A DNA stretch of 64,000 nucleotides from Schmidtea polychroa (taxonomy: Eukaryota), in NCBI GenBank assembly GCA_044892525.1, contig CM097885.1, positions 150,660,001-150,724,000 on the forward strand, in the 5' to 3' direction. Positions 16,838 through 42,493 of this stretch are shown here, piece by piece (positions within the stretch are counted from its first letter, which is position 1; the number at the start of each line of letters is the position of its first letter). The notes beneath the pieces are model-generated. The model did no database searches. It had not been told where the DNA came from and worked only from the letters and a program-made list of their open reading frames with translations. The position numbers and the translations under genes were made by a program.

Positions 16838-16892
16838 ACTGCTATACGAAAATTTTTATTTACAATTATTTACATTGATCATTCATCTTTAA

Positions 16893-18819: not shown

Positions 18820-19038
18820 CCTTGTCTAAATAACGATATCATTAACTTAACGTTGTACGCTTATATCTGGTTTATTATTTATTTATTTTTATAATTCGTT
18901 ATAGGAGTTGTTTTAGGAGTTTTTCGCTTAAGTTTACCTTTGGTAGATTTGGGGGGAATTTTCTACACTACTATATAATATTTTACTGGATATATACGCC
19001 GATATTTACAATTAGTATATACAAAATTATTCGTCTCC

Positions 19039-20427: not shown

Positions 20428-20516
20428 TTCTATAATTATATATATACATATATTCGTTACCGGTACAGTTTCGTATTTTTATTTACATTTATTTACATTG
20501 CTATTTTAGGTTATAT

Positions 20517-20876: not shown

Positions 20877-21044
20877 TCTTAATTTATATATACTTTTCAA
20901 TCCTTATCTAATTTTATTTTTATATTAATTATCCCCATCATTATATACTATTGATACCGCGCTTATATAAAAATATAGAATACTGTTATATAAATAAATA
21001 ATTCCTACTTACTTTTTACAATCTATATACAGTCATAATCCTTT

Positions 21045-24000: not shown

Positions 24001-27000
24001 CTACCCACCTTTAAAAGCTTGTGCAGGGGTGTGTCTCCGTAGTGGTCTGTGATCGTGAATAATATAGGCCATTGACTTTTAACTACCCTGAGCAATGGGT
24101 GTGTTCTTTCTCGGTTTGCATAATTTTCGATCATTGTTAGCAGACCTCCCAATATCTCAAAATCTAATCTGTCTTCTGCCCATCCGGGCATTTTAACTTT
24201 TACTTCCTTTATGATTTTCTCGGCTTCTGATGGTTGTAACCCTAATCGATTACCTGTTGGTTCGTTTATTTGCTGTAACATGTTTATTCTATACGTTTGT
24301 GATCTTGTCGTTAGTGTACGTCCTTCTGGCTGACTGGTGGCGGTTTTCGGAATTGGCTTACATCGTGCAACATTTACATATATTGGCCTTGTAAAAGGGT
24401 TGTTCACTAATCGTACTCTTACATTAGTTTCTCCGACGAATAGAATCTCATACGGCCCTTTACCGTTTCGTTGTAATTTTTTGGTGGTTCCTGGAATTAA
24501 TTCTGGTGTTTCAATCATCACCCAATCGCCTGTTTGAAACGTATGCTGTTTGACGTTTTTCTTTCTATCATGTAACTCTTTGTAACTTTCTTGATAAAAT
24601 TTTATATTCAATCCTGCGGTTTCCCAGATTTCCTGCATTCTTTCCTTGAACTTGGTTACATAATCGTCTATTTCCATGTACTGTGATATCGGTGGCTGAT
24701 ATTCTAAATCCATTGGCATATTGCATTCTCTGCCGTACATCAACTTGAACGGACTCATCTTTGTGGACGCGTGAATCGACATTCTGTAAGCCATGAGGCA
24801 TAATTTTATATATTCATCCCAGTCTCGTTGATGACGATCGACATAATTTGATAACATTTGAATCAGTGTTCCATTGAATCTTTCTGTCATACCATTAGTT
24901 TGTGGATGGTACGGTGATGTTCTTAATTTTGCGATCTTGAAGTAGTTGGTGACTTCGCTCATTATTTCGCTCATGAAATTCGTTCCTTGATCCGTCAGTA
25001 TTTGTTTCGGCGTTCCATATCGACAACATATTTCCTCTACTAATATTTTTGCGATTGTTCTTGCTTTCTGATCTGCCATTGCGAATGCTTCGGGAAATTT
25101 TGTCAAATAATCTGTGATTACCAATATATATATATTTCCTCTATCTGATTCTGGTAGTGGACCGACTACGTCCATTGATATCATCGTCATTGGTTCTGCT
25201 GGCACTGGCATTGGCTTTAATGGTGCCTTCCATTTTGTTCCCGTGTTTTTTCTGGTTGCGCAAGTTATGCAATTTTTCACCCATTCCGTTACATCCTCGG
25301 TCAATGTAGGCCAAAAATATTTTTGTTTCATTCGTGCCAACGTCTTTTTAGATGACATATGTCCTCCGAGTCTTCCGTCATGGTATTGTGTTAGTAGATC
25401 TTTACGTCTATTCTCGGGAATGCACATCAGTCTTTTCTCGCCATCCATTATCAATAACCAATCTTTCTCGATAATATATCGATGTCGATGTTTATCCATA
25501 TGCTCCTTCAATTTTTGATCTTTCTCATATACCTCTGCTTTCCCTGTTTTCACATATTCAATGATTTGCTTCAACTCTGTATCCTCTTGTTGGTCTTTCC
25601 GTAATTGGCAAAAATCTAAATCTTCTGCTACCATCAGACATATTCGTTGCATTTCGTGATCTACTAAATCTGGAAAGATAAATCTGGACATACAATCCGC
25701 ATTGGCATTCGCTCTTCCCGCTTTGAATTTTATGAACGGTGAATATTCTTGTAACTGCATTGCCCATCGCATCAATCTACTTGAAGCTTCTTTGTGTTGA
25801 CCAAGCCATACTAATGGTTGATGATCCGTGGTGATACATATTTCGTGTCCCCATAACAAATATCGAAAGTGTTTAATTGCTTGTATGATTGCTAACGCTT
25901 CTCTCTCGGTTACGGAATAGTTTTTCTCGTGTTTTTTAAACGTTCTACTGTAGTATCCAATCACTCTTTCTTTTCCTTCTTCGTCGAGTTGTCCCAATAT
26001 TGCTCCGGCTGCATATCCACTTGCATCTGTTGCTAATAGGAACGGTTTCTTGAAATCAGGATGTACTAGTATTGGGGCTTCAATTAATTTATCTCGCAAT
26101 GTCTCAAACGCTTTTTGTTGTTCTGCACCCCAAATAAATGGAATATCCTTTTTCACTAATTCCTGTATTGGTTTCGCAATACCTGCATAGTTTTTGATGA
26201 ATTTTCGATAATATCCGCATAATCCGAGAAATTCTTGAACTTGGGTGACAGTTTTTGGTGCTGGACATGTTTTTATTTTTTCTAGGTTTCTTGGATCTGG
26301 TTCTTTGCCTTTTGCTGACACTATGTGTCCTAAGAACGTAACTTTTTCTTTTGCCCAATCACATTTGGATGGTTTAAGTTTCAGTTTCCATTGTCGTAAT
26401 CTAACGAACACATTTCTGATATCTTCCAAATGTTGTTCGAATGTTGCTGAATATATTAATAAATCATCAATATATACCATACACTGCTTGATCCCGTGTG
26501 TGACAAAATTCATACATCTCTGGAATGATGCTGGGGCATTGGTCAGTCCGAACGGCATTTTCCTGAATTGGTATAGATCTCGGCCCAATGTGAATGCTGT
26601 TTTCTCTTTGTCTTCCTCCTTGACTTTGATCTGCCAATATCCGCTTTTCAGATCTAAAGATGTAAAATATGCGGCCCCCTGTAACATAAGTAACATCTCA
26701 TTGATGTCTGGTAACGGGTATGTGTCTCTTTTTGTTACTGCATTTAATTTCCGATAATCGATACAGAATCTCTGAGTACCGTCTTTTTTCTTCACCATGA
26801 CTACTGGAAATTGCCATGGCGAACAACTTGGTTCGATCACTTGTGCATCTAGCATTTTTTGTACTTCGGCTTCGGCTATCTCTTTTTGCTTCTCCGCTAG
26901 TTTGTATGGGCGTAGTGCGATTGGAGTTTCGTCTATTAATGGTATTGCGTGTAATGTAACATCGCATGCTCCCAAATCTAAATCCGAAATTGCGAATATA

Positions 27001-30000
27001 TCTTTATATTCTATCAATAATTGTTGAAGTCTCTCCTTTTCTTTTTCCGTTAGCAAGGTGCTATCAATTATCCATAATTCGTCCGCTTTCGTTGTTTCGT
27101 TGGTGATTTTTGGTAATTCGATGTCTATCATGGGTGTCAATCTACCCAATCTTTCATTTTCATATATGATCTTGTCTTCTTCCTCGAAATTTGTGATGTT
27201 AATTGGTATTTCCCCGTCTTCATTTATTGTTATTATTTCTCTTGCTAATGGTAATTCTCGTCGTTTTTCGAATGATTTGCTTGGCTCAAAAATGACTTCT
27301 CCTTCCATTCCTGCATCCACTTTTATTTGACATATCATCTGTGATTTTGCGGGTACAATTATTTTCTCCGGACATCTAATTATTGCGTTCATCTTGCATA
27401 TTCTACCCATTTTGTCTTTTAGACACATTGTTGTTAAATCGATTACTACCTCCTTAAACAATTCCGGCATTAAATCCGTTCCGATTATACATGGTTCACT
27501 CAGTTTGGGTATCACCGCTAGATACGTTTCAATTTCGTTATCCTGATATCGTAACGTAGTCCACCATCTTCCTACTACGTCTACGGTTTCTTTACTGCAT
27601 GCAATAATATGGATAGTTGTTTGTTCGATATCCTTCCAACATTTACTGGGTATTTGGTTTATTGCTATTGCTGATACGTTTGCTCCGGTATCTATCATGG
27701 CGCTTGTCTCTTTCCCGTTGATTTGGATCATGACTGTTACTGCCGCACCTCCTGGTGAACTCATCACTGCTATCGTTCTTACGTCGTCCGCTTGGTCTAC
27801 ACTTTTCGTTCTTCGGGTCGGCATATAGTTCATTCCTGGTTGACTTGGTAACTGTGGATACATATTTTGTGTCATGGTCAAAGCTGTTTGTTGTCCAACG
27901 ATATCTGGTGGTATGTAACTTCCGTTGGCTATCCAGGTATTTGTTTTTTCTTTCTCCCAATATGGTGCTGTTTCTATTGGCTTTTCATTCGGGTTTCTAC
28001 TTGGATATGGGTATTTGTCATTCCCGTTGTCGTCATCATCACTATCGCTGCTGTTTGATCGATTCCTAAATCTGTCTAAGAATTTTGGTTTGTTCTTTTT
28101 CAGTTGCGTCCTTGTTGCTTCATCATACATCGTTTTCCGAAATCGTCTACCGACTTCCTCGTCAGTTCCTTTTATTTTTGTCAGTATTTTGATCAATCGT
28201 TTTATTCTGTGTATGTCTTTAGAATGACCGTGCAACACCATTGTTTTCGCCAAAAATGGTAGAAAGCCTACTATTAATTTCCAATTTACCTTCTTTTCTC
28301 TCTTATAGATATCAAAACACGCTAACATTTGAGTTAATATTACTCTGACGATCTGAATAATTAAGATGATTCCCAATATTCCTGCCATCATTTGACCGAA
28401 CACTAGAAATCTTCCCCACATTGCTTTCATCATGTTTGACGTGGCTTGTTGAAAATGATCAGGTGACAATAATAGTTCGTAATTGGGGCCTGACTGGAAA
28501 TTCGTTCCCCCAGTTATGGTAACCATATTCGATAGAATGGATTCCCGTCTTGCTGGGAATAATACGTTTAATCGTGCCGTTTCTAAATCCTCCGGTGAGT
28601 ACATACCTGCTTTTGACACATCAATTGGTTTGAAATCTTGTTCTGTTGCAAGTTCTATTAGTCCAAACTTTTTAGGTTCTTGTACTTCGGTTTTTACCGG
28701 TAACATTATCCATTTCCCATCGGGTTTTTCATATAACGGTCCGTATGCATTTGAACAGTTAAAGGTGTTCGGGTAAAATCCAATTGGGTTCATTATTCGA
28801 GTGACGGGTTGAACGAATCTGTTTCGCCCTTTGTAACTAATTTCTAACTCGTTTGCACATTTCCCTGGTGGAATTGTGGGCTTTCTTGGCAGTCGCGCAA
28901 ATGTCTTGGTACATGCATATGTATACATTACCTCTCCCACCATTCTACCAAAATGTCCATCCGGTAACGGGAGTGATGGCATTGTGTTATCTGGGTGTGT
29001 TATTGCGATGGCTAATTTTGTTTTTAGTATCTCTTTATTCAATGAACAGTCATTTTGTATAAGATCGTAATACACTTTTTGCATTGTCGTTTGTCCTCGG
29101 TGAAATAAAAAGTCCATTTTGTTATTGGCGTACAGGTACAATTTTACGTCCTCTGTTGCTACCTTTCCCACTGCTCGGTCTATTACTTGCCTGGACATGT
29201 AGATACCTGCGTAGTTCGTCCGGTATACTATGCTGTCACATTTGGTGGTTTCTTTTTCTCTAATGAATCTCATGCCGATATCTGGGTCATCTGTAATTAA
29301 TGCCGTTGGTGTTTTTTGGGTTGTGAGTCTCTTTTCTTTGGGGGATGGCGGAACTGGTTTCCCATTTCGCATCCTTACGTTTCCATTCTCTTCATCGTCA
29401 TCCTCGTTTTCGTAAATTTCTCCTTTTACTTCATTGAATAGAGCACTTTTTAACAATTGGAGTCGGCATTTTTGGGTGTTAGCTTCATATATTATAGTCG
29501 AAATTCCCGTTCTACACACGTTTTCCGTAGCTCTGCATGCTGGGTTGGTTTTCATTTGATAGTTGTTCGCGTCGAATTGTGCTTCGTATTCCTTCAACTC
29601 CACTGTGTAGGACTCAATTACTACTACTCCCGATATCACCTCTCCTCTGATCGTATATGTGCCTCCGTTACATGATCCATCAGTTGATTTTACTCGTCCA
29701 GCGACATAGATACTTTCTGTCTTGATCATTCCGCTTTGTCCGTGTATTGTTACTCCATCCCTGATTCTCATTGCTCCGGTTCTAAAAAGCTCTTTACAGT
29801 CTTCCCGTTGTATAGGTACTATTTCTTTATCTAATCCCGGTAATATAAGGGTTGAATATGAGTATTGTCCACAGTAATATGCCAACACTTTCTTTGATAC
29901 TACACATTCTCTAGCTTGCGTTCTAATGAAATCTGATTCTTGGTATACGTGATAGGAGACTTTCTTCTTTACTATATCTAATTTATTCGGAGACGCCTGT

Positions 30001-33000
30001 CTACATTCCTCTATATCTCTCAGGGAGTATCTTTCTCCTATTATCGAATTGTCACAGTCGTAAATAGTAAATCCCGCGGCTCCACTGGTGCAGAGCATCC
30101 ATATCATCATGGTCATCATTAGTGAATTAATCGACGCTTTTCTGCTGGCTGGGTCTTTCAATGGCAATTCCCATTCTAGCTCATGTAGTAACTTCTTCAA
30201 CCGAATTTGCATTGATCTCTCTTGCTCGTTTTTTCGTGGCGCTTGTATGAGTCTTTTCCACCCACCGGCGCGGATGATATGTGGTTCGATTGTATTTTCA
30301 ATGATTGTGACGGTCATTTCTACATGATTTGCGAATTGTTTGTTAGGTATTTTCCTTGCTGCTAATCCCATCAAATTGTACATTAGATACGTTAATACTA
30401 CTAAATGATGTTCGTCGTCGTTTGCGTTTAAAGTTAATTGTTCAATTACTCTTCTTGTCTCTTCCCAATCGGTTTTAGTGGTTTTTGTCTTCTCTTTGAT
30501 TAATTTCGGAATTATTCCGGATATTGTATTCCATAGTTGTCTGGCGTCTACGCTTGCTACTTTTCGTTGCCATAACCGTCGCAATTGTGGGTTCGTTATT
30601 ATTAGCATATCTTTTACTAGCTCTCGTATCCATTTTTCGCCTCTTTCGATAGTTGGCTGGGCCTCTTTTAGATCCCACACTATTTTATCCAGTTTCTCTA
30701 ATCTGACTTGTCCTTGTTCTTGTTTCAGTTGTTCTCTAGTTTTAAATTCCGGTTTTTCTCCTTGCTTCTTGGGTCTCCCTTTTGCCCGTTTTTCCATCAT
30801 TGTTCCGGCTTCCCTTGTATTTTCATAATTCGGGTTTCTCTCGTTATCCGTTCTTGGCAATGAGCTATCGTTATTTCTTAGCCATTCGTTCCATTCGTCT
30901 ATTATTTTGTCCGTTTGACCTTCTGGTGTTGCTTTCGTTGGTCCTTTCTGTCGTTGGAATTGTTCGTCGGTTTCGGTTTCTGTTGTATTATCGATAATCT
31001 CCTCGATACTCAGCTTATTTGGCTGCTGATAGCTAGTTGACGGTTGGCTTGTTGTCCATATTTCGGCTCCTGTCGGCCATCTTACCAGAATTGGTGATCT
31101 TTCTCCAGCTCCTTCATCGCTGTCTTCCAATATAATTTCCTCGATTTCCTCGGTTTCATTCGTTTTACTTGCCACTTTGTTAGGGCTTGGTGTACTCAAG
31201 CTACCTTTCGTAGGTTTACTGGATTTGTTCTTCCTTTTAATCGGTTTTCCCAATGTTTCTGCCATTGTCAATACATTGATCTCCCCCAATCTCATGGGTG
31301 TTATTCCGACATCTGCATTATCATCCAACGATTTTCCGAATAGTTGTAGGTGAAATGGAGTTTCGTATGCTAATTTCTTTTTTAACTCTCTGATCTTTGT
31401 TGTTGGATGTACTTCTGTATCCTCAATGCTTTTGTCGGGATACTTGACTCGGATACGATACCTTTCCTGGGTATCTTGTGCCCATTCTTGGTTTCTCCAT
31501 TTCCTAATAATTTGTTCTAGCTGTTCTGGGTACCATTCGTTATATTGTCTGTATTCCTCAATCGCTTTCGCCATTTCTCTTAGATTGTGGATATTCTCTG
31601 ATGTCTTTAGGATGATGTTAGCCAATGCTATTACTTGACGTTTTTGATTTTTTGTTCCCGTTGCTAAGATATCACCTAATTGTTTATATCTTTCCTTCTC
31701 TTCTCGTTCTCGAGCTTCCATCGCTTCTTCGCTATCCATATCGGCATATTCGCGTTCTTTCTTTCTCATCGCATGAATATGTCTGGTTTCCGTTTCACTT
31801 TCTGATGTAACATCCGTTTCGCTTCCGTCGTCCGATGTCGATTCTATTTCGTCCTCTTCGTATTTTGGAGGTTCATCTTCCTCTTCTTCTGATTCACTTT
31901 CTATCTCACTAATGTCTGTTTCCACGAAAATCCCTTTCCTGATTTTCCATTCTTTGTTTTCCGCATTCCACGTCCTTTCCCATGGGGTTCGTCTGCAGGA
32001 TCTCACACTTAGTTTCTTTATTTTTCCTTGAAGCTCTTTTTCTTTTAACCACTGTTGATGAATTTCAATTATCTCTACTGATTTTTGATATAGCGTTTTC
32101 ATCCTGTCTCGTATTTCTTTCTGGTATGTTATATCTCTTGTTCGGAATTCGTCCATGGGCAATATTCTGATGATTTGATGATTATCCCACATTCCCATTT
32201 CGCTTAGCGAGGTGTCGTCTTCGGCCCGTAATATTATTTTATCGTACATCATGACTACGTCATCTATCATCCCGTCGCTACTCTCGCTTCGTACTTTTTC
32301 CGTTATCTCTTGGTTTATCTTGGTTACTAAGTCATCTACCGTACTCTGATTACTCATCTTTATTCGTCGTTTCTCCTCGTTTGGTAACCATATGGTTATT
32401 TCTAATTTCTGCGGTTGCGTTTCTTTCAACCTGCCATATTTGTGGATCAAATTTATGGTTCTCCAATCGCTCATCCTGAGCAATTCTGTATCTCGTAATC
32501 GGCTCATTAGTTCATGCATGTCTGGAGTTCGTCTTGCTATGAGTAAATCCCAGTTATCTTCGACTTGTTCTTGAATTTGTTTGATTAATTTATCTAGATT
32601 TCGTCGCAAGGTGCATTGTTTTATTTGTTCCAGCTTCAGCTTGATGCTAAAATCGTACTCGGCCTTTGCGTCTTTAGCCCATTCGTGAATATTTGCTGGT
32701 TGTTTCTCTTTATACAATTTCAATATTTGAGTTTCTCCTGGCCAGATCAATGCATCTATTAGGTGCATGTCTGGTTTGATTTGTTCTCCTTGATGTTGAT
32801 ACAGATATTCTTTCTTTCTCGAGCTGCCCAAATGTTCTCTTATCCAATCGAAAAGGTCGTCTGTGACTGCATTTTTTATCCATATTCTCTCGAGTCCTTT
32901 ACTCGTTCCGATTTTTATTACATAGCGTGTTGTCTCCGCTTGTTTCATTTTTTCCATATACTTCTTTATTATCACTTTTTCCTCGTTTGGTATTAGGTCT

Positions 33001-35480
33001 TTTTCGTTTCTTTCTAGTTTCATTATCTTTTGTATGAAGCGTCGGTATGGTATGATGTCAATGAATTCCTGGTTTCTTACCACCACTGGAAGTATTTCCT
33101 TTACTTGTTTTATCGCTTCTTCTCTTTCTTTTCTCAATTTCATTTCGATATTCTCGTCTTCGCTTTCGCTTGTCACGTCGCTTTCTCTTTCATCTTCATC
33201 TGCTCCGATCTTTTCTCTTAGTTGGTCGATATTTTCATTTAACTGTAACATTTCTCCACCAAGGCTACTCACATAATCCTCATCGTCATCTGTTGACAAC
33301 ACCTTCTTTGTTGTCCTCATCATATTAATTCGTAAATTTCTCATTCTTGGTACTTTCTTTAACTTGTTGTTCTCGAGTATCGTTAGCTCCTCTGAGTCTA
33401 ATTCTCGTATCATATTATGCTTTAGATGATTAATCTGTTTTTCATTTTCGTTATTTTCTGCTTCTGCTTCTGTTTTTGTTTGCTCATTTTCTCTTTCGAT
33501 TTTATCTTTTATCTTTTTCCAAAATATTTTCTGAATTCTCTGATTTCCTTTTAGTGGTGTTGTTGAATTTTCCTTTTTTGCTGCTGTAATTGTTTCTTTC
33601 GGTTTCTCTGGTTCGCTCATAGGTACAACTCTTGGATTTTTACCGTAATTGTAACAATATTGCTCCTTTATCTCCTTTACCATCCTCATCATATTTATTC
33701 GTAGTGGTTGTTCTTGTCGCTGCTGAATTCGCTCTCTTTTTATCCTTTCTTCTTCAGCTTGTAGTCTTTGCCATTCTTGTGCATGTTGTTGCACTTCATA
33801 ATTGTTAAGATTCTCGGTGCTTCTCATCATGCGTATATTCTGGGTTGGTTGTGGTACTTGCTCTTGTCTCGGTCTCATCATTTGTTGCATCATCTGCTTC
33901 ATTTGTGAAATTTCTTGCATCACATTCATTTGCTTTCCCTCACTAGGATTACTTTGTCGTTGCGGATTTGGTGCATAGTTATTATTTCGCTGTGGTGGTC
34001 GTTGCTGTTGGCTCCTTTCTCGACAGTCTCTTGAGATATGACCTAGTTGCCCGCAGTTAAAACATCCTCTTGATTGGCATATATTTTCCGTGTGTCCTCG
34101 TCGTCCACACCTATTGCAATTTGCGTTTCGGTAACAATCTCTATCCCAATGTCCTGGTTTACCGCATGTTCGGCATTGTTTGTTATCGTTCATATTTCGT
34201 CGATTATTAAAGTTGTTCCCATTGTTCGAGTTGTTGCGTTCACTGTTATTCCCGTTTGATCGTCCTTGTGGTGGTTTGAAAATTTGATGTGCTCCTGGTA
34301 TAAACTGATTCATCTTGGGTTCATGATTATTGTTATCCCCATTTTCCGTTTTCACCGTGGCTGTTGCGATTCTTCCCTCCTCTTGCATGACGTTCATTTG
34401 TGCTGGGAGGTGTAGTTCGCATCTTGTGGCCCAATCTATGGCTTCTTCTAGTGTTTTACACATTTGACATCCCACCGAGGCCCTTACCTCTTCTCGGCGT
34501 AGTCCTTCTATGAAGTAACCAATTAAATTTTCCTCCGGCAAGTTTCCGTTCATGGCCTTCTTTGCCAATCTTCGCAATTCACTTGCGTATAACGTAATTG
34601 ACTCGTTTGCTCTTTGTTTTCTACTTGCCAGTTCACCTAACGCTTGATTTATTGGTTTGCTGGCTCCGAATGTTTTTCTCAAAAATGTTTTGATGTTTTC
34701 CCAATTGTCTAATTTCGTATTTCTTTCTTTTGCTTCCAGATACACTTCGAGTGCGCTATCGCACAAAAACAGAGGCATTCGTTTACTAATTGCTTCGGAT
34801 GTCCATCCACACACATCGATATAGACTTCAAAATTTGTTATGAACGTTGCCAACTTGTTCGCATTCCCGTTGAACGGTTCGCCTCTAAATTTTTCTTTAT
34901 ATTCGTCGGGTTTTGCTACATTCATCTTGATTGGTTCTTGAAATGCTATTATTTCTTTTAAATTTTCTAGTGATGTAGCTAAACTATGGACGGATAATTC
35001 TTCCGTTGACCCGGTTAGGTTGTTTGTTATATCGGATAGACTTTCTCTACTTCTAGATCGACTGGGCGTATGTCCGGCTGTGGGGTTTTCTTGATCGTAT
35101 ATCGGTGTTTTGTGGGGTCTTTTTGCTCCTTGTGATATTCCTCTCTGCTGCCTAAATGATCGTCCTCTTTTGAGTTGATCTAATTCGTCTCCTGAAAATA
35201 ATACGTCTCCTGGCTTACTTGAAGATCTAAGGTTGGGTTTATCCGTGATTTTCCTTTTACTCTTTTCTGTCTTTTCACGTGGATTTTCTACAGTTAGCGT
35301 CTGCTGAATTGGTCGAGTTCGGTTTTGATATTGTCTTCCTTTGTGCGGGTTCTGAATTGCTTTTCCTGGGTTGTTTGTATATTCTCTGGATTCCTCTTGA
35401 GCTGGTTCTGAATTGACTTGGTTGGATGGATGTCTACAATGAAAATATGATATCGTGTTGCCTTTGCTTACACGAATCAA
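21045..35480 (-). CDS. Single-ORF giant polyprotein: Gag, Ubl x3, Bcl-2-like, chuvirus-like glycoprotein, PR, RT, RH, INT, ankyrin, signal/TM module (4,811 codons)
   Basis: No internal stop over 14,436 bp. First in-frame ATG at 34925 (Met186). Motifs: three CX2CX4HX4C, DTG, YIDD, TDAS, HHCC and D-D-E, ankyrin TPLH repeats. Confidence 0.96.
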   Translation of the reverse strand: MIRVSKGNTISYFHCRHPSNQVNSEPAQEESREYTNNPGKAIQNPHKGRQYQNRTRPIQQTLTVENPREKTEKSKRKITDKPNLRSSSKPGDVLFSGDELDQLKRGRSFRQQRGISQGAKRPHKTPIYDQENPTAGHTPSRSRSRESLSDITNNLTGSTEELSVHSLATSLENLKEIIAFQEPIKMNVAKPDEYKEKFRGEPFNGNANKLATFITNFEVYIDVCGWTSEAISKRMPLFLCDSALEVYLEAKERNTKLDNWENIKTFLRKTFGASKPINQALGELASRKQRANESITLYASELRRLAKKAMNGNLPEENLIGYFIEGLRREEVRASVGCQMCKTLEEAIDWATRCELHLPAQMNVMQEEGRIATATVKTENGDNNNHEPKMNQFIPGAHQIFKPPQGRSNGNNSERNNSNNGNNFNNRRNMNDNKQCRTCGKPGHWDRDCYRNANCNRCGRRGHTENICQSRGCFNCGQLGHISRDCRERSQQQRPPQRNNNYAPNPQRQSNPSEGKQMNVMQEISQMKQMMQQMMRPRQEQVPQPTQNIRMMRSTENLNNYEVQQHAQEWQRLQAEEERIKRERIQQRQEQPLRINMMRMVKEIKEQYCYNYGKNPRVVPMSEPEKPKETITAAKKENSTTPLKGNQRIQKIFWKKIKDKIERENEQTKTEAEAENNENEKQINHLKHNMIRELDSEELTILENNKLKKVPRMRNLRINMMRTTKKVLSTDDDEDYVSSLGGEMLQLNENIDQLREKIGADEDERESDVTSESEDENIEMKLRKEREEAIKQVKEILPVVVRNQEFIDIIPYRRFIQKIMKLERNEKDLIPNEEKVIIKKYMEKMKQAETTRYVIKIGTSKGLERIWIKNAVTDDLFDWIREHLGSSRKKEYLYQHQGEQIKPDMHLIDALIWPGETQILKLYKEKQPANIHEWAKDAKAEYDFSIKLKLEQIKQCTLRRNLDKLIKQIQEQVEDNWDLLIARRTPDMHELMSRLRDTELLRMSDWRTINLIHKYGRLKETQPQKLEITIWLPNEEKRRIKMSNQSTVDDLVTKINQEITEKVRSESSDGMIDDVVMMYDKIILRAEDDTSLSEMGMWDNHQIIRILPMDEFRTRDITYQKEIRDRMKTLYQKSVEIIEIHQQWLKEKELQGKIKKLSVRSCRRTPWERTWNAENKEWKIRKGIFVETDISEIESESEEEEDEPPKYEEDEIESTSDDGSETDVTSESETETRHIHAMRKKEREYADMDSEEAMEAREREEKERYKQLGDILATGTKNQKRQVIALANIILKTSENIHNLREMAKAIEEYRQYNEWYPEQLEQIIRKWRNQEWAQDTQERYRIRVKYPDKSIEDTEVHPTTKIRELKKKLAYETPFHLQLFGKSLDDNADVGITPMRLGEINVLTMAETLGKPIKRKNKSSKPTKGSLSTPSPNKVASKTNETEEIEEIILEDSDEGAGERSPILVRWPTGAEIWTTSQPSTSYQQPNKLSIEEIIDNTTETETDEQFQRQKGPTKATPEGQTDKIIDEWNEWLRNNDSSLPRTDNERNPNYENTREAGTMMEKRAKGRPKKQGEKPEFKTREQLKQEQGQVRLEKLDKIVWDLKEAQPTIERGEKWIRELVKDMLIITNPQLRRLWQRKVASVDARQLWNTISGIIPKLIKEKTKTTKTDWEETRRVIEQLTLNANDDEHHLVVLTYLMYNLMGLAARKIPNKQFANHVEMTVTIIENTIEPHIIRAGGWKRLIQAPRKNEQERSMQIRLKKLLHELEWELPLKDPASRKASINSLMMTMMIWMLCTSGAAGFTIYDCDNSIIGERYSLRDIEECRQASPNKLDIVKKKVSYHVYQESDFIRTQARECVVSKKVLAYYCGQYSYSTLILPGLDKEIVPIQREDCKELFRTGAMRIRDGVTIHGQSGMIKTESIYVAGRVKSTDGSCNGGTYTIRGEVISGVVVIESYTVELKEYEAQFDANNYQMKTNPACRATENVCRTGISTIIYEANTQKCRLQLLKSALFNEVKGEIYENEDDDEENGNVRMRNGKPVPPSPKEKRLTTQKTPTALITDDPDIGMRFIREKETTKCDSIVYRTNYAGIYMSRQVIDRAVGKVATEDVKLYLYANNKMDFLFHRGQTTMQKVYYDLIQNDCSLNKEILKTKLAIAITHPDNTMPSLPLPDGHFGRMVGEVMYTYACTKTFARLPRKPTIPPGKCANELEISYKGRNRFVQPVTRIMNPIGFYPNTFNCSNAYGPLYEKPDGKWIMLPVKTEVQEPKKFGLIELATEQDFKPIDVSKAGMYSPEDLETARLNVLFPARRESILSNMVTITGGTNFQSGPNYELLLSPDHFQQATSNMMKAMWGRFLVFGQMMAGILGIILIIQIVRVILTQMLACFDIYKREKKVNWKLIVGFLPFLAKTMVLHGHSKDIHRIKRLIKILTKIKGTDEEVGRRFRKTMYDEATRTQLKKNKPKFLDRFRNRSNSSDSDDDDNGNDKYPYPSRNPNEKPIETAPYWEKEKTNTWIANGSYIPPDIVGQQTALTMTQNMYPQLPSQPGMNYMPTRRTKSVDQADDVRTIAVMSSPGGAAVTVMIQINGKETSAMIDTGANVSAIAINQIPSKCWKDIEQTTIHIIACSKETVDVVGRWWTTLRYQDNEIETYLAVIPKLSEPCIIGTDLMPELFKEVVIDLTTMCLKDKMGRICKMNAIIRCPEKIIVPAKSQMICQIKVDAGMEGEVIFEPSKSFEKRRELPLAREIITINEDGEIPINITNFEEEDKIIYENERLGRLTPMIDIELPKITNETTKADELWIIDSTLLTEKEKERLQQLLIEYKDIFAISDLDLGACDVTLHAIPLIDETPIALRPYKLAEKQKEIAEAEVQKMLDAQVIEPSCSPWQFPVVMVKKKDGTQRFCIDYRKLNAVTKRDTYPLPDINEMLLMLQGAAYFTSLDLKSGYWQIKVKEEDKEKTAFTLGRDLYQFRKMPFGLTNAPASFQRCMNFVTHGIKQCMVYIDDLLIYSATFEQHLEDIRNVFVRLRQWKLKLKPSKCDWAKEKVTFLGHIVSAKGKEPDPRNLEKIKTCPAPKTVTQVQEFLGLCGYYRKFIKNYAGIAKPIQELVKKDIPFIWGAEQQKAFETLRDKLIEAPILVHPDFKKPFLLATDASGYAAGAILGQLDEEGKERVIGYYSRTFKKHEKNYSVTEREALAIIQAIKHFRYLLWGHEICITTDHQPLVWLGQHKEASSRLMRWAMQLQEYSPFIKFKAGRANANADCMSRFIFPDLVDHEMQRICLMVAEDLDFCQLRKDQQEDTELKQIIEYVKTGKAEVYEKDQKLKEHMDKHRHRYIIEKDWLLIMDGEKRLMCIPENRRKDLLTQYHDGRLGGHMSSKKTLARMKQKYFWPTLTEDVTEWVKNCITCATRKNTGTKWKAPLKPMPVPAEPMTMISMDVVGPLPESDRGNIYILVITDYLTKFPEAFAMADQKARTIAKILVEEICCRYGTPKQILTDQGTNFMSEIMSEVTNYFKIAKLRTSPYHPQTNGMTERFNGTLIQMLSNYVDRHQRDWDEYIKLCLMAYRMSIHASTKMSPFKLMYGRECNMPMDLEYQPPISQYMEIDDYVTKFKERMQEIWETAGLNIKFYQESYKELHDRKKNVKQHTFQTGDWVMIETPELIPGTTKKLQRNGKGPYEILFVGETNVRVRLVNNPFTRPIYVNVARCKPIPKTATSQPEGRTLTTRSQTYRINMLQQINEPTGNRLGLQPSEAEKIIKEVKVKMPGWAEDRLDFEILGGLLTMIENYANRERTHPLLRVVKSQWPILFTITDHYGDTPLHKLLKVGSNEQILETIEAFRDCNISTDQENNQGYTPLMIAANRDKAKDIIIALLETGSKITTQDHNQKNALHHAIEGKSTEAFIILVDLISYEDNREIGNMYDGLFTAIKEKLTTITGILIAWRNPIKNDYMVDINETFTKGENTLMREAMRGHHLFEIPNQLLQRGIKFSNHKDEQLIRKRITNFEKAISQFTDKVQVKFWDTVSVLHMMETMNNIRENYLSIIQVLTAEERINSSNKKKIKMKKVKTRKSEEQVEQPITDIATTSKPKTINSDQEIVVRKAKEVFFEEMQDLSDEAILAKITKTVHTYARDQTTNLDIGKIKTFIPLAFTLPTKDSRTPLQQAILAAKENRAITIIRILRDFGEESNAKNEQGETAMMYAAITNIHPKTLHILHQSGSRLDEISNEGNSTMDWATIQPNLEMIRFICKNATRTEVENICKNTSQFQWNTIRMNLEAMKLLLTWRIPQSNKYAININEFYENGENAMVKNTLTKGGTPKIIMIVLNREDLKFTQNLNEQKRIGKHRRIQLRELVKEWNRKRHVATGRKEFELEAKLARNRVLTAYRRLLNDINVEDDILNDSGGDKDDKDDKDDDNNEKGRNGNKEKEKLEENNQENNDASREKEENNPRNRMKQEEKTNSGKQRVCLLFTNKEMETNMMIMILVLTMVEMITAQGGMRTIKEAKETGNKDNKEEELKQEKKKQVQEQQWDLKEEWDLKERCILGRCMSRAYQRLVLKNEDAEPITEVRIQEAYRNREGKRITKVKGKEVHLGKGGEVVITQLQPRKEHKVCIARLRPGEDCLQYVIQQQPPKEYTICIWRKDTARECRRYPGKRGKKRKIDDEKDEQGKRKKNSEKHQDNYVSEEEMEKIQKMAKEGMNEEIARIRGMMKGNGKDGNLKSTETISTITSKEKAEIISIKQMMWISGIIITGAFLIITGGTIKIIKDRRHHGELEMARIRNFQHRVKRPSNIKQEQWVEAWNAQRPPSSRI
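22730..24065 (-). other. Two ankyrin-repeat blocks (~23720-24065 and ~22730-23015) after integrase
   Basis: DHYGDTPLHKLL, NNQGYTPLMIAA, DHNQKNALHHAI; DSRTPLQQAI, NEQGETAMMYAA, NEGNSTMDWA. Confidence 0.88.
24400..25440 (-). other. Integrase (HHCC, DDE, GPY motif)
   Basis: HDGRLGGH...CITC, DVVGPLP, TDQGTNF, NGMTERFN, GKGPYEI. Confidence 0.96.
25690..26940 (-). other. pol: Reverse transcriptase and RNase H (Ty3/gypsy type)
   Basis: FCIDYRKLNAVTKRDTYPLP, LDLKSGYWQI, MPFGLTNAPASFQR, VYIDDLLI (YIDD at 26463-26474). RNase H LATDASGYAAGAIL, YSVTEREALAII, TDHQPL. Confidence 0.97.
27400..27770 (-). other. Aspartic protease domain
   Basis: AMIDTGANVSAI (DTG at 27684-27692) and the downstream CIIGTDLM flap-side motif. 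Confidence 0.93.
28230..30135 (-). other. Env-like chuvirus-type (class III) glycoprotein: internal signal peptide, Cys-rich ectodomain, TM
   Basis: Signal LMMTMMIWMLCTSGAAG then FTIYDC. Conserved pattern YCGQYSYS, GSCNGGTY, YANNKMDFL, GHFGRMVGEVMYTYAC, CANELEISYKGRNRFVQPVTRI, GMYSPEDL...FP. TM WGRFLVFGQMMAGILGIILIIQIVRVIL. Confidence 0.82.
30240..30720 (-). other. Divergent Bcl-2-like helical domain
   Basis: VIEQL...(hydrophobic helix)...IEPHIIRAGGWKRL matches Bcl-2 VVEEL...LHTWIQDNGGWDAF, spanning 64 vs 63 residues from the first V to GGW. The BH1 NWGR motif is absent. Confidence 0.6.
31261..32927 (-). other. Three ubiquitin-like (beta-grasp) domains (~32705-32927, ~32158-32408, ~31261-31463)
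   Basis: The third, RYRIRVKYPDKSIEDTEVHPTTKIRELKKKL...LQLFGKSLDD, aligns by eye to ubiquitin [30 protein letters not shown]...LIFAGKQLED. The second has STVDDL...YDKIIL...DDTSLSEMG. The first is weaker. Confidence 0.7.
34023..34925 (-). other. gag: Gag domain (capsid plus three CCHC zinc knuckles at 34134-34175, 34077-34118, 34023-34064)
   Basis: EPFNGNANKLATFITNFE...YASELRRLAKKA...YFIEGL capsid pattern. Knuckles CRTCGKPGHWDRDC, CNRCGRRGHTENIC, CFNCGQLGHISRDC. Confidence 0.93.
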
Positions 35481-36145
35481 TCATTCCTTTTTGCCACATT
35501 CAAGCACAGACACCGTTTTAGGGCCTCTGTTATACTTCTCTTCATTTCCCCTCATACGCTTCTTCGCGGAATATAATTTCCCATCAACCCATATTTTTCG
35601 TCGATTTTAAATTATCTATTTGGGGTGGTAACAATTATCTATATAGTCGTATAAATTATCTATAGCTAGCATTTATAATATCGATAGGTCGTTGTCAGTT
35701 ACTGCTTATTACCCCCCATATTTTCTTAATCCTTTTACGCGGTTCCGCTATTTTACTTAATCTTTCATCTCTGTTTCCCCTTATTTGGTTCTACTCTGTA
35801 ACCAAAACAAAATTCGTTTAACCGGTTTAAACCAAAAAAATTCTGTAGAACTTTGTCTACTTATCTGGGATCCCTTTTAATTAATTAATCACCTTCCTCT
35901 TTTACTCATCACTTATTCTTTATTTTCATTATCTCTTTAATTCATTTTCCTTTTCCGTTTCTCTTTCCCACTGAAAAAAAATTTTCATTATTACTTCCCA
36001 CGAGCTCGTTTAATTCTTTCTAAATTCAAATACCATATTTCAAACTCACTTTGCTTCTAGCTAGCTTTAATATTCCATCTCACTAGTAATTTAAATGTTA
36101 TCAACTTGTAGCTTGAATGCTATCTCACTATTACTTTAGGCCTTT

Positions 36146-36820
36146 ACGACTGGCTGGCACTTTTCAACAGCTCAATCTTCTTCTCCTGACCGGTTGGACT
36201 ATTCAACAACTCGATCTTACGACTGGCTGGCACTATTCAACAGCTCAATCTTCTTCATCTCCGAACTGGCTGGACTTTTCACAGCTCAGTTTTAATTTTC
36301 CCTGCCCGGCTGGACTTTTCAACAGCTCGGCCTTAATATCTCCGACTGGCTGGACTTTTCACAGCTCAGTTTTAATTTTTCCTGACCGGCTGGACTTTTC
36401 AACAGCTCGGCCTTAATATCTCCGACTGGCTGGACTTTTCACAGCTCAGTTTTAATTTTTCCTGACCGGCTGGACTTTTCAACAGCTCGGCCTTAATATC
36501 TCCGACTGGCTGGACTTTTCACAGCTCAGTTTTAATTTTTCCTGACCGGCTGGACTTTTCAACAGCTCGGCCTTAATATCTCCGACTGGCTGGACTTTTC
36601 ACAGCTCAGTTTTAATTTTTCCTGACCGGCTGGACTTTTCAACAGCTCGGCCTTAATATCTCCGACTGGCTGGACTTTTCACAGCTCAGTTTTAATTTTT
36701 CCTGACCGGCTGGACTTTTCAACAGCTCGGCCTTAATATCTCCGACTGGCTGGACTTTTCACAGCTCAGTTTTAATTTTTCCTGACCGGCTGGACTTTTC
36801 AACAGCTCGGCCTTAATATC
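36146..36820. repeat. Tandem array, 80-bp unit made of two diverged 40-mers, in the element's 5' leader
   Basis: TCCGACTGGCTGGACTTTTCACAGCTCAGTTTTAATTTTT + CCTGACCGGCTGGACTTTTCAACAGCTCGGCCTTAATATC, repeated exactly 6 times at 36341-36820. Progressively degenerate copies back to ~36146. Confidence 0.95.
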
Positions 36821-37405
36821 TCTAAACTCTGCATGCTTCCGTTCCTTTTTGTCTTTATTCTATACTGTCATCTTCCTATTTTTACTTTTATTTGTCGACT
36901 TAATCTGTACCGCTTTGGAAGGTTTCCCCTTTCCCCCCTTGCTTAAAACGCAAAACGATCGCATTGATCCATTTCTGCATTGGTATGGTGATCAGCCATA
37001 CCGCAGAAACTTTTCAATATTCGCGATGGTACCTCGCCTTACATCTCTTACTCGGGGTGATCGGTTATCCCCTCCCGAACGGTTTTTCAATTATCGTACC
37101 TCCCGAAGGTGGCTCGGTTTATTCCCCCTTTAATCTTATGTTGGGACTAGCTCCACTTTATGTACTCGATTTAAATTTTAAAATACCCTTTCTTCATGGT
37201 GAAAATTATGATACCACAGATCAAATTATAGCTTCGCAAAATGAAATAAACACACAAAAATGATTTATTGATTATTCAGTCCATGCTACATATGATATAT
37301 GATACCATTATTAAAATATTAATGAATCAAATCAAAAAAAAATTAAAATATTTTAGTTTAATTGTTCAACCATCCAATTTCTCTCACCGAGCGACGATCA
37401 CGTAC

Positions 37406-37885
37406 CTAACTGAAGTAGATTGTGTGCTTCTCTTTTATTACACATGTGCACATAGAACACCGGATTAAACTGGCGGCGCATTCGTCACAATGGCTAAGGT
37501 GCCCACAAGGTAGAATCAGAATTTTGACAGGTCGCATCTTGCAAATGTTACAAGTTCTCAAGGCCGCTGCTTTCTCTACTATTGATGTTCGTATCCGCTG
37601 AGACAGAGTTTTGACTCGTTCGCGTATCCTCACATATTCGATGTTCAGCGCTGGGTCGTCGAGACGTTGCTGAAACCATTGGTAATGAATCGACAAGTCG
37701 GTATCGGTATTTGTTGATCCTAATCTGTCGGTTAGAAAGTTTTGTTTGGATATCAGCGGTGCGTTGTGGCTTTGTTGTTCTAGCAGTTCTATTTGTTTCA
37801 GTTTTTCCCTTAATGTTTTTATTGAATCATTTTCTATTTCGACGAACCGGCTTAGCTGTTGTAGATGTTGTCTAGCGTCTGACAT
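37406..37885 (-). CDS. RING-finger protein, IAP/MDM2-type C-terminal RING, no BIR domain (159 aa)
   Basis: CNICKMRPVKILILPCGHLSHCDECAASLIRCSMC...KHTIYFS*. The RING ends at the extreme C-terminus with an aromatic tail, as in IAPs. Coiled-coil N-terminus. Confidence 0.85.
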   Translation of the reverse strand: MSDARQHLQQLSRFVEIENDSIKTLREKLKQIELLEQQSHNAPLISKQNFLTDRLGSTNTDTDLSIHYQWFQQRLDDPALNIEYVRIRERVKTLSQRIRTSIVEKAAALRTCNICKMRPVKILILPCGHLSHCDECAASLIRCSMCTCVIKEKHTIYFS

Positions 37886-38337
37886 ATCTAAATGAATGTG
37901 TTGTTATTATTTGTTCTTACTAGTATTAGCAATAATATTATTACGTTGTATTTAATATTCGTTTCTCTTTTATTTGTTATTGTTTCTAGCTTTCGTATTT
38001 TATTTAGTCTTTTTAACAATCCCCGTCGTATTTTTGACTTTAATCTTTTAATTTTATTGTCATTACTTTCTTTTGTCTCCCCTTTTTAATTTAATAAATT
38101 AAAATTAAACAAAGTAACTAATTCCCGTTTCCTTCTCTCATCATACTCTATCATATACATTCATACTCATTTAGGTTCATCTTTATTCATACATGCTCTA
38201 TTTTCAGTTCGTATCATCATTCTATTGTATTACGATATCGATTCGTTTCAGTCCCGATTCCATTTTTAATCATAATTAATTAAATTGTTAATCTAACACA
38301 TCATAACACAATAATAGGTAATCAACAAATCGAATTC

Positions 38338-38355
38338 ATCCCGGCTGAGCCCCCA
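38338..38355 (-). other. Primer-binding site, tRNA-Pro type
   Basis: Minus strand reads TGGGGGCTCAGCCGGGAT (18 nt), close to the known tRNA-Pro PBS TGGGGGCTCGTCCGGGAT. It lies 7 nt inside the 5' LTR end. Confidence 0.85.
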
Positions 38356-38362
38356 AAAATCA

Positions 38363-41300
38363 TGTTGGCGTATGTGGGGGAAAGAAAATATATAGGCATG
38401 ATTATCATACACATCAGGTGTCATTATTCTACTCAGATCATTCCCTCACGCACTCCAAATGATCATTCGCATATTCCCACATATGAGCCCGTGGTGATGT
38501 TCCACGTTGGTACTGCTCACACGGGTTGGAAAGAGTTAGCAGGTGAGCCCCTGCCTTAGGACTACTCCTAACCCTTTCTCGGTTCGGGTTCTACGGTGCC
38601 ATAGAAGGTCTTACCCATTCTTTACGCATCATTCGGTCCGACCCTGGTCCAAAAGGTAAGACATTTAAGTTTCTACTATATTTTCGTGATCCTTCTCTCA
38701 TGCAATTCAACCGTAGCAAATCATACATACAATTTACACAATCAAAGAAAATCGAACAGTTATATTAGAACGGAACATCAAATTACATTCAGCATTGTTT
38801 AAACAAATGCAAAACATTAAAGATTAGTCACGAGATAACGTCGCTTCTTCAAGTTCGTTCGTAATAGCAGGGGAATCGAGACCCGAGAGAGAATTGGCTA
38901 CGAGAATGCTTCTCCTTCTGCGAGCATCTCGTCGATGTCAACGGGCAACCGGCGATCTTCGAGGAATTTGATACTGCCGGCCGGAACTACCCGGAATACT
39001 TCCTTTGTAGGAATGGAATGGGAAACTGTAATTTCCTTGATAGTTGCTTTGGCCACAGATAACGATGCTTCGAGCGCGGCCATGGCATTTCTACGCTTCT
39101 GATTTTTTTCAGAACGCGTCAGCCGCTTACGCTTTCGATGGGGAAATGTAGCTTCTGCTGGGGACTGAAGGAGGTGTGGCACGCGTACTGGAGCCAAGAT
39201 GGGGTCCGATGGACCGCCAGCCGTAGGTCGATCGCCCGAAAGAACTGGGGCGGGAATTGGCGGCATTTGTGGGCCATGCCCTTTACAACTGGATATTGAT
39301 GAGGTTTCAGCTAATTTGTGGTGTATTGGGAACACGTTAGTCCCATCTTGTATCGGGTACTCGCGAACTCGCTTCGCTAGTTCTGATTCGGAATACACCT
39401 TGTGCAGTGCCTCTGATTGGGCCTTTATGGTTAGCCGCTGGCACCTGCTTTCTTCCAGGAGACTGTCACGGCAGTGCTCCAAACGCAGAATCTTGCTCTT
39501 CTCCTCCTTCATTTGTGGTGGGGAGAACCACGTTCCCTCATAGAGGTCAATTCTCTTCTTCAATTCCCCGATGTACAAGTGGAGCTGTACGATATCGGCA
39601 TTTTTATCAGCACAGGAAAAGCAAGGTCTGAGGGTTTTCCCGGAACTGGTTGAGGTATTCATCTAAATCGTTAAGGAATTGTTATTTTTAAATTAAAAAT
39701 TTACTGGGGTATTATTCATATTTTCGGAAAAAGAAATGTAAGATTTCCCCGACCAAGTTATCCAAGAGTGACCTACCAATCTACCCCGTCGGCAATTAAC
39801 CACCTTCATACAATCTCAAACATCCAAACTAACCCATGTAATCATTACTACTTTATGAGAAGAAAACGGGATTCATGAAAACAATTCATTATGCTAGCTT
39901 TTAGGTATACTTTTTGGGTTTGACTATCTTTAACTGCTGTATGACTGTTACTTCGTTACTATGAACGCTATTATCTTAATTATCGTTATTACCTTTTAAC
40001 AATTATATTTTACTCATTTTGCTGCCATGTCGTTAGATTCTACGCGTGCTATATGATGAACGGAAAATCGGCAATTACCGGGACACCCCGTCTTGTATGT
40101 AGACCCCTCGGGTTTGTACGAAAATCATAATACTCTCACTTAAATTGTTATCATGGATTATAATTTAGTTATTTAAATTTAACGCCATAAACATCGTCAT
40201 AGTGACGCTTAAATCGGGCGCAGTTATGTGTTCATTTGCTTGTCTATCTATACCGTCAACTATCGACGGGTTCGTTATGATGCATGTTGGTGCATTTAAC
40301 TAGCGATTTGCACACCGACAAAAAAAAAATTTCTCGTCGCATCGCCATGTTCTCTGACGCAATCCAGTGGTCTACTAGCAGATACAAGTTTACGACTCTC
40401 TCCCTATGATTAGGTAATGATGATATCCACATGTGCACTGTGACCTAATCTGAGTGTGATGCATGTGTACATGTGGGCGAGCGATTAATAGAGGTAGAGT
40501 TGTAGAGAGATGCTCTAGTTGAGACGGGTACTCAGTTGGTGTGTCCAAAACTCAAGAAATTCGATTGTGTGGGTGACTTGCGGATTCAGTAGATAAAAAT
40601 TACTCTATATTCTGGATTCTCGATATTAGGTCGACTCACGATAAGACCACTCAATACACTTGATCGACTGCCGCCTTCTCAATCAACTCGTTCGATGACT
40701 TTATCAAATTATCAGCTGATTTTCCCCGTCAGAAATTTATCTGGCCATGGGCAACTAATGATTCTCCTATCGCTATTGATATCTTCACTCGGACTCACGG
40801 CAAGTGATTTATTTCCTTATCAAAAAATTTGTTTACTTTCCCCTTTTAGACGAGCCGCTGTCAACGTCAAACCAAACTTTATCAGATATTCAATGTCAAG
40901 CTAAAGTCTAAATTAGTAAATGAATGGGTTTACTCGCTAATATCCCTGCAATGTACCTCTCGGGGTTCAATTTTTAAGGGCTTAGCAGATCTTCCAGTGA
41001 AAACTCTAACAATTCATCGCCCATCCCTACTCAGACATCTATCAATATTCGACGGAAAAGCAAATTTTCCTAACAACAACGAACTACTGATCTCAATCCG
41101 AAAAATTGTCTCCGACTTTGGAAAATTTACATTATTTATTCTGAAACTTCAGCGTGACTTCATAAAAGAAAACGAAAGATCCTCTATCAGATCGCGCTCG
41201 AGGTGAGAAATTCTACTTCCAACAGTATTCCACCTGCGGAGTCTCCTCACCCCTCACGACCCACCCAAGAAGGCAATCATCTCTGCCGCCGTTCTTGCAT

Positions 41301-42493
41301 CGTCGTGAGGGACCGTTTGACTCGTCTTTCACAAAATCAACATTTAATATACAATTTATGAATAATAAAATGAATGAATGAATCAAATAGTAGCAAATGA
41401 ATCAGTAAAAATAAATGGATCAATAAAGCTCACCCGGCGACCCTATCATTTGGACTCCAAGTATGATGTTATTCATTCCACACAACCGCAGCCTCATCAT
41501 AACCTTGGTAGATCTCTCACATGATAAATATCCTTCTCTGCAAATGTCACATTTTCATTTTCAGCATCTTCGGGATTTCTTATGAAGGTCAACCTTCCCA
41601 CTGTTGTGTTCTCTGCCGTGGTACATTTCCAACTCATCCACATCATACTGGGAGCTCTCAGATGGTACAGTCGCCGGCACCATGAAGAAAAGGCCATTTG
41701 TATTTCAATAAATTTATTTTACGAAATGAGTTTTGTCTTTCATCATTAATAAATTAACTAATACATATAAATCAATCGGCCTACCGATAGTTTCAAAAAC
41801 TGGAACGAAATCGAGTTTAAACTGGTTTCAAATTATTTGAAGGTAACTTCTGAAAATCTCTCGAATTAGCGTTTGCGATTCTAGTCCTGAATTCGGTGAA
41901 ATATCTGAAGTCTATGCTCTGTAATCGTGAAAAATTAAAAGTGGTTGTCGTCTAATTTTTCACGTTACATATATAGTATTTTTCGTCCAATCAGGACGCT
42001 ACCTGCTTGTATTTTTACTATTTATTATTATTTTTCTGTTTTTTATTATAATATATTAGATTTTAATGACTTAACTTATTTCTTATTATTATTTTATTTA
42101 TTTTCCTATTTTTATTATTTTCCTCCTATTTTTCTTGTAGGTTTATTGCTACTTTATTGTAATATAATTTTTTTGTTTTAATTAGACTTAAAGATAGTTT
42201 TATTTTTTATTTATTTCTTAAATTTCTCTTTTATTTGTTGTCACTTTTTTACTTATTTTATTCTATTTCATCTGCTGGGTCCTAACTCGCTTTATTTCTA
42301 AATCTCAAGGGGTTTATTGGATTTTATTTAGTTTGTTTACTTATTCTTATTCTTTTATTGTTATTTTATTGTTCCTTCCTATTTACTAGTGAGATTTCTA
42401 TGGTACTTTATATTTTTATCTTATTTCATTTATTTTTCAAGGATTACTTTTCTATTCGCTCCAGTTTTCGAAACTCCACATTTTAGCCCAACA
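38363..42493 (-). repeat. 5' LTR (4,131 bp)
   Basis: Direct repeat of 11840-15970. On the minus strand it is followed by the PBS. Confidence 0.97.
38898..39662 (-). CDS. LTR-encoded hypothetical protein (254 aa), 5' LTR copy
   Basis: Same ORF as 12375-13139 with one Ala/Val difference. Confidence 0.6.
   Translation of the reverse strand: MNTSTSSGKTLRPCFSCADKNADIVQLHLYIGELKKRIDLYEGTWFSPPQMKEEKSKILRLEHCRDSLLEESRCQRLTIKAQSEALHKVYSESELAKRVREYPIQDGTNVFPIHHKLAETSSISSCKGHGPQMPPIPAPVLSGDRPTAGGPSDPILAPVRVPHLLQSPAEATFPHRKRKRLTRSEKNQKRRNAMAALEASLSVAKATIKEITVSHSIPTKEVFRVVPAGSIKFLEDRRLPVDIDEMLAEGEAFS

Follow-up and report, generated by a model that had tools for sequence, protein, structure and literature searches.

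Burro, or GYPSM1, denotes giant Gypsy-like long terminal repeat (LTR) retroelements of planarians (Jurka 2007 and Grohme 2018, as reported by Arkhipova 2019, PMC6431247; statements about this and the other papers cited refer to the accessible sections of each). Burro elements exceed 30 kb and carry a single open reading frame (ORF) of 4873-5140 residues, with a Ubi/SUMO-like domain, ankyrin repeats, MATH/TRAF and BIR; Burro1 holds both BIR and MATH (PMC6431247). The same review attributes a BCL2-like motif to Grohme 2018, places Env between BCL2 and the protease, and leaves to experiment whether Burro meddles with apoptosis. The window analyzed here is a stretch of 64,000 nucleotides from Schmidtea polychroa (contig CM097885.1, positions 150,660,001 to 150,724,000), and all coordinates below are window positions, with every feature of the element on the minus strand. 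It contains a whole Burro-like LTR retroelement (11840..42493; 30,654 bp) flanked by a 4-bp target-site duplication. Judged from sequence profiles and predicted structure, the element's polyprotein contains a real but degenerate Bcl-2-family domain (residues 1587-1748, 30237..30722) with eight predicted helices, and our concern is with what that domain is and what it may do.

The element matches the published description of Burro in exceeding 30 kb with its LTRs, in its one polyprotein of ~4800 residues, and in its Gag with three CCHC knuckles, which are followed by a ubiquitin-like domain (weak, E 0.013), the BCL2-like domain, an in-frame mononegavirus-like Env, protease, reverse transcriptase, RNase H and integrase, ankyrin repeats, and MATH/TRAF cargo (PMC6431247). 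It differs in that its TRAF-like protein is encoded by a separate downstream ORF, whereas MATH lies inside ORF1 in Burro1 and in an upstream ORF in a Dugesia element. No BIR domain, a trait of Burro1/GYPSM1, was found among the 18 Pfam matches of the polyprotein at E≤1; of the other accessory frames, a part was scanned. The gene order and Env class are also those of the GAG-ENV-POL errantiviruses of Platyhelminthes, Nematoda and Bryozoa, whose HSV/gB-type Env ectodomain is likewise flanked by a signal peptide or membrane helix (PMC13524379); the words "bcl", "burro" and "apopto" do not occur in the accessible main text of that paper. A BCL2-like motif between the ubiquitin-like domain and Env is thus already published for Burro, and its annotation is not new. 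The sections of the Burro review at hand contain no analysis of fold, selection, motifs or anchor, and the literature searched, which had most subscription papers outside its reach, yielded no study of the domain's structure or function.

The domain sequence of the window's element is weak by itself; the case for homology is made by the sister-family rows in the profiles. Searches of the genome with Pfam Bcl-2 and with Env revealed four further Gag-Env-Pol families, B (L061, L068), C (L077), D (L079) and E (L087), all ~30-35% identical to the window's element over the domain and Env together, and each with a helical domain ending in GGW directly before the Env signal; over the domain, identity between families is only ~15-25%. 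Two outside relatives, P0002 and P0003, were found through Env. The former carries the domain, scoring 25.8 bits with the profile of the element-only alignment A4, in which it was not included, and the domain occupies the last cytosolic place before the signal peptide in six lineages (the five families within the genome plus P0002). With the isolated window domain (157-162 residues), Bcl-2 was the sole Pfam family at E≤1 (E 0.019-0.02, 16 bits). All 19 rows of A4 match Pfam Bcl-2 at E≤1 (best 4.7e-7), and three family-B copies exceed the curated cut-off of 31.4 bits for PF00452 (L052, 33.3 bits; L076, 32.6 bits; L065, 32.2 bits). A profile of seven non-retroelement Bcl-2 sequences of the same genome gave the window domain 13.9 bits, a score reached by none of 1000 shuffled sequences (best 7.0), and the reversed sequence scored -0.4. 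Two element-only profiles, neither including a host sequence, were compared with PDB sequences: the best 60 of 129 matches to the first (E 3e-4 to 1.6e-3) and the best 60 of 143 matches to the second (E 3.9e-5 to 2e-4) were all Bcl-2, Bcl-xL or A1. In hhalign, the element profile aligned to the seven non-retroelement sequences over 67 columns (94.8%, E 5e-8). A first, sequence-only reading of this DNA had named a lack of Bcl-2 matches in profile searches as one outcome that would speak against a Bcl-2 homologue here; such matches were obtained. Profile, fold ranking, sister-family position and conservation all favor the homology it proposed, but the domain is not the cryptic find that it supposed.

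The best-recognizable part of the domain is its core, helices 4-8 with a degenerate BH1 without NWGR and the BH2 GGW (30243..30461), which is the 73-residue peptide quoted in that reading; it matches residues 1674-1746 (window 30461-30243) of the minus-strand frame 21045-35480 without a single difference. Other particulars of the reading hold as well: the BH2-like GGW lies at residue 1739, NWGR is missing from the window domain, and the spacing from the conserved helix 4 Val to GGW is nearly that of Bcl-2 (61 residues, V92 to G153, versus 60 in Bcl-2 chain 5fcg_A). An AlphaFold model built with 12 rows has eight helices. All 35 rows listed by Foldseek against the PDB belong to the Bcl-2 family (Bcl-xL, Bcl-2, BAK, BAX and Bcl-w), with 133-164 columns aligned, and the top rows from a viral library include the Bcl-2 proteins of herpesvirus, iridovirus, adenovirus (E1B) and adintovirus. 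From these models and the sequence profiles, we consider a full Bcl-2 fold very probable, although likely rather than proven. The fold comparison suggested in the sequence-only reading came out divided, with eight helices and Bcl-2-family rows only, but with a pLDDT of 55 and a best E of 0.042.

Copies of the domain are numerous and mostly free of stops. A genome search with a 213-residue query gave 901 candidates, of which 150 were scored; all 150 are 93-100% identical to the query, 144 are stop-free across it, and 18 of the first 30 copies listed lie in frames of at least 4700 codons. Selection was measured against the subfamily copy L073, and L072 gave the same picture. Over 157 codons the domain retains 94.3% residue identity to L073, with differences at 76.3 of 99.5 synonymous sites (i.e., saturated) versus 13.7 of 371.5 non-synonymous sites. 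The corresponding residue identities are 93.4% for the capsid, 94.2% for the protease, 97.5% for the reverse transcriptase, 89.1% for the Env ectodomain and 76-85% for the long linkers; within the domain, helices 1-3 (95.1%) are no less conserved than helices 4-8 (93.4%). The domain is under purifying selection and is conserved like the capsid and protease.

Several observations nevertheless weigh against a working Bcl-2 protein. The window domain falls below the PF00452 cut-off; a single-sequence search with it found no match in PDB sequences and none among 1.84 billion representatives; and the sequence likeness to Bcl-2 is limited to helices 4-8, with helices 1-3 unmatched. Confidence in the predicted structure is low (pTM 0.42 for the model with 12 rows; pLDDT 47 for a model made without an alignment), no Foldseek match reached E 0.001 (best viral 0.46), and the PDB rows had TM scores of 0.41-0.55 (one domain-swapped row aside) at an rmsd of 6-9 Å; the models are too poor for a groove to be read from them. 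NWGR occurs in none of 13 element rows. Among those rows the BH1 Gly is retained in P0002 only, and the BH1 Arg is replaced by Lys in three, by Val in eight and by His in the family of the window's element, where BH1 also carries a three-residue insertion and the first BH2 Trp is a His. To judge from the alignment, the BH1 Gly/Arg pair, which grips BH3 motifs, is systematically lost in the element domains; the salt bridge between Arg and Asp is described as characteristic of BH3 binding, which changes in the motif can abolish, and mouse Boo, whose motif is altered, binds none (PMC5691656). Bcl-2 folds have also been reused for other jobs, e.g., in A52 and B14 (PMC2494871). The distance from GGW to the hydrophobic stretch that follows is variable (29-64 residues), and P0003, which has the same Gag-Env-Pol layout with Pfam matches to Env, protease, reverse transcriptase, RNase H and integrase, is without the Bcl-2-like domain (-5.9 bits with the A4 profile). 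Finally, the linkers too are under purifying selection, as is the whole polyprotein, so selection supports a folded, needed domain but names no function for it.

The BH2 GGW is invariant in all 19 rows, as are hydrophobic core positions across families, and acidic residues lie at the groove edge in 12 of the 13 element rows. Two facts caution against making too much of the missing NWGR: of the seven other Bcl-2 sequences of the genome, it is present in two and missing in five, and the poxviral proteins DPV022, SPPV14 and N1L bind BH3 motifs although hardly any BH sequence, or none, is left in them (PMC11209288).

The hydrophobic stretch beyond the domain begins at residue 1784 (window 30131), 48 residues past GGW and just outside the span first marked. 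It had been proposed to serve both as a Bcl-2 tail anchor and as the glycoprotein signal peptide, and only the second of these roles is well supported. The predicted internal Env signal peptide (residues 1780-1803, 30072..30143) has a basic n-region, a hydrophobic core and small residues at -3/-1. Ten rows were compared (one further row was dropped for want of a YDC match, and L061 is out of register owing to a short deletion); all ten begin with basic or polar residues, continue into a hydrophobic core and have a small residue at -1 and Ala, Ser, Thr or Ile at -3, and the predicted cleavage site lies two residues ahead of a conserved YDC block at the Env start. From these sequence marks we are quite confident that the stretch serves as the signal peptide of Env, with cleavage after residue 1803. 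No C-terminal tail anchor ending the protein was found, as the frame continues into Env, and P0003 retains an equivalent hydrophobic stretch even without the domain; the stretch is therefore best assigned to Env. It could still come to anchor what lies upstream. In hepatitis C virus (HCV), the E1 signal remains on core as a C-terminal endoplasmic reticulum (ER) anchor after signal peptidase cleavage (PMC5402940), and by analogy we lean toward the cleaved peptide remaining attached to the upstream product and anchoring it in the ER, barring a second cut. The likeness to HCV core-E1 is one of topology only; the virus and the proteins are unrelated, and in HCV a second cut frees the upstream protein. 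The ER is the more likely anchor membrane than mitochondria because insertion would be co-translational and no basic residues lie behind the anchor.

On this basis a function can be proposed. Emergence of the internal signal would place translation of the polyprotein on ER-bound ribosomes; Env would then enter the lumen, the part comprising Gag, the ubiquitin-like region and the Bcl-2-like domain would remain cytosolic and membrane-anchored, and Pol would again be cytosolic past the Env membrane helix. The ER-anchored Bcl-2-like domain might restrain killers of the Bak/Bok type in the host during expression of the element. A viral-style pro-survival role for the domain, as a decoy to such host proteins, is a tentative reading of its sequence, to which we give a little less than even weight. 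The weakest step is BH3 binding, which would have to use a non-canonical groove, as in the poxviral proteins without BH motifs; to this step, too, we give a little less than even weight. Planarians employ mitochondrial apoptosis (PMC7022251), host Bak-like genes are present (L043, best PDB match BAK, E 2e-8), and the TRAF-like ORF and ankyrin repeats lie in the same element as further cargo. The proposal in its complete form is that a working viral-style Bcl-2, released and held at the ER, neutralizes planarian Bak/Bok via an NWGR-less groove, so that hundreds of genomic copies would constitute an element-encoded death brake in a highly regenerative animal, derived from one capture and kept through the Gag-Env-Pol radiation. 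We regard that full chain as rather unlikely.

An alternative, itself unlikely, is that the Bcl-2 fold has been turned to another pathway, either NF-kB/TRAF signaling, as with vaccinia A52 and B14, or Beclin or IP3R binding at the ER, acting with the TRAF-like protein, ankyrins and ubiquitin-like domains. The missing BH1 Gly/Arg pair, the acidic groove edge, the cargo just mentioned and an anchor predicted to lie in the ER and not in mitochondria would all suit such a role. A52 and B14 share the fold, have no groove and have no effect on apoptosis (PMC2494871), and they resemble the element domain in that the Bcl-2 fold comes without the canonical features for BH3 binding and in an immune-modulating setting; however, these NF-kB inhibitors have no sequence likeness to Bcl-2, whereas the element domain keeps BH2, with its invariant GGW, and is found by Bcl-2 profiles as still like cellular pro-survival proteins. 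Foldseek, moreover, puts cellular Bcl-xL and BAK and the classical viral Bcl-2 proteins first.

Distinctly improbable is a structural role, in which the domain would form a helical, matrix-like module next to the membrane, held at the ER by the Env signal peptide and bridging the Gag shell with Env and the budding membrane. Its position in six lineages, its capsid-like conservation even in helices 1-3, which no longer resemble Bcl-2, the basic AT-hook-like motif preceding it in families A (that of the window) and B and in P0002, and the like anchoring of HCV core (PMC5402940) speak for this, but P0003 shows that the layout does not need the domain, and the spacing to the anchor is not constant. 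Decay of a captured Bcl-2 gene into a mere in-frame spacer might account for the low identity between families, the lost BH1 and the domain-less P0003, but it is very improbable, being largely refuted by the conservation data: residue identity stands well above that of true linkers at saturated synonymous sites, nearly all scored copies are stop-free, and core positions and GGW do not vary across families. Chance likeness of an unrelated helical domain with a GGW is scarcely credible, for although single-sequence searches were blank or weak (Pfam E 0.02) and the Foldseek E-values non-significant, Pfam (19/19 rows), the PDB sequence profile and the fold ranking are three separate routes that all lead to Bcl-2 with no competing family, no shuffle reached the observed score, and family-B copies pass the Pfam cut-off.

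The remainder of the element is arranged as follows. The 5' LTR (38363..42493) and 3' LTR (11840..15970) are each 4131 bp, with TG...CA ends; they are 99.976% identical, indicating a young insertion. Each LTR holds a 254-codon open frame (12375-13139 and 38898-39662, minus strand) with no Pfam match, and a tandem array of 80-bp units (36185-36904) lies in the 5' leader between LTR and Gag. The single Gag-Env-Pol polyprotein frame (21045..35480) has 4811 codons from stop to stop, with its first Met at residue 186 (window 34925). It begins with a retrotransposon Gag (capsid) domain (residues 236-329, 34494..34775; PF03732, E 2e-10) and three CCHC zinc knuckles (residues 436-487, 34020..34175; PF00098, E 3.5e-10, also seen by eye). 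The ubiquitin-like domain closest to the Bcl-2-like domain (31251..31478) is the Pfam ubiquitin match noted above, below the cut-off; two weaker candidates lie further upstream, one at ~32166-32423 (Ubiquitin_4, E 0.18) and one at ~32706-32939, which has no ubiquitin-like Pfam match. Just upstream of the Bcl-2-like domain is the AT-hook-like basic GRP motif (residues 1564-1572, 30765..30791), and family B and P0002 have the same motif in the equivalent position. The window's copy has no Pfam AT_hook match, only L067 giving one (E 0.063); by eye the motif is also in P0003, and it is absent from families C-E. Env (residues 1804-2393, 28302..30071) is a mononegavirus/gB-type fusion glycoprotein (PF24664, E 7.6e-72), whose transmembrane helix is placed by hydropathy at residues 2364-2382. 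Pol follows (24903..27734), its Pfam matches being protease (residues 2583-2674), reverse transcriptase (2896-3054), RNase H (3117-3246) and integrase (3354-3526). The polyprotein tail contains ankyrin repeats (residues 3833-4214, 22839..23984; PF12796, E 5.9e-16; PF13637, E 1.5e-08) and, near its end (window 21190-22100, residues ~4479-4765), another signal-like hydrophobic segment (4479-4497) along with a membrane helix (4747-4765), which suggest a second surface protein; the P0002 and P0003 polyproteins have the same type of ending. Between the LTRs and downstream of the polyprotein, the accessory TRAF-like ORF (19039..20478) combines RING (E 9.5e-05), a TRAF zinc finger and MATH (E 2.8e-26). 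Four more accessory ORFs behind the polyprotein (17782-18825, 16893-17597, 16201-16713 and 20517-20903, minus strand) are charged and coiled-coil-like, with no convincing Pfam family. Outside the element, inverted repeats of 230 and 94 bp, ~1.1-1.6 kb apart (48462-50236), are probably the remnant of a DNA transposon.

The genome holds further Bcl-2 sequences outside the Gag-Env-Pol families. A stand-alone 152-residue Bcl-2 ORF (Pfam 33 bits) occurs in a different dispersed multi-copy element (L053-L058, L070; in L053 at 1405-1860 minus and 2521-2988 plus), copies of which are 94-99.9% identical over 2-3 kb between chromosomes. The adjoining ORF is one that we take to be TATA-binding-protein-like, and the element is possibly DNA-virus-like or Polinton-like. 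A second multi-copy, apparently intron-split Bcl-2-like gene (L046-L051, L059 and L060, also L095 at 1985-2266) sits in a repeated unit of at least 3 kb with several unknown ORFs, the copies being 75-98% identical. Seven near-identical NWGR-bearing Bcl-2 genes (L031-L037, G000:C4:89.9-90.8 Mb) share 97-99% identity over 2.7 kb. The non-retroelement Bcl-2 sequence fitting the element profile best is L042 (G000:C1:268.5 Mb) at 34.5 bits, the next being L054 at 22.9, and both are without NWGR in similar fashion. By its profile score L042 may be a lead to the donor lineage, although a tree did not resolve it.

Relative to what is published for Burro, the new elements here are the five families, the measure of selection, the finding that the BH1 Gly/Arg pair is systematically lost, and P0003 as a natural control for assigning the hydrophobic stretch to Env, and the gain is incremental. 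The viral Bcl-2 proteins reviewed in the accessible sections of PMC11209288 (KsBcl-2, E1B 19K, F1L, SPPV14, DPV022 and N1L) are those of double-stranded DNA viruses; they share with the element domain a diverged Bcl-2 fold in a virus-like agent, but they are stand-alone genes, mostly with a true C-terminal mitochondrial tail anchor, whereas the element's is a polyprotein domain followed by an Env signal peptide. The job of the domain is directly testable on a 160-residue protein. A functional Bcl-2 in an LTR retroelement, if true, would extend apoptosis mimicry to reverse-transcribing agents, and because a failure of PIWI silencing raises the level of Burro RNA in differentiated cells (PMC8532177), it would also bear on planarian cell turnover.
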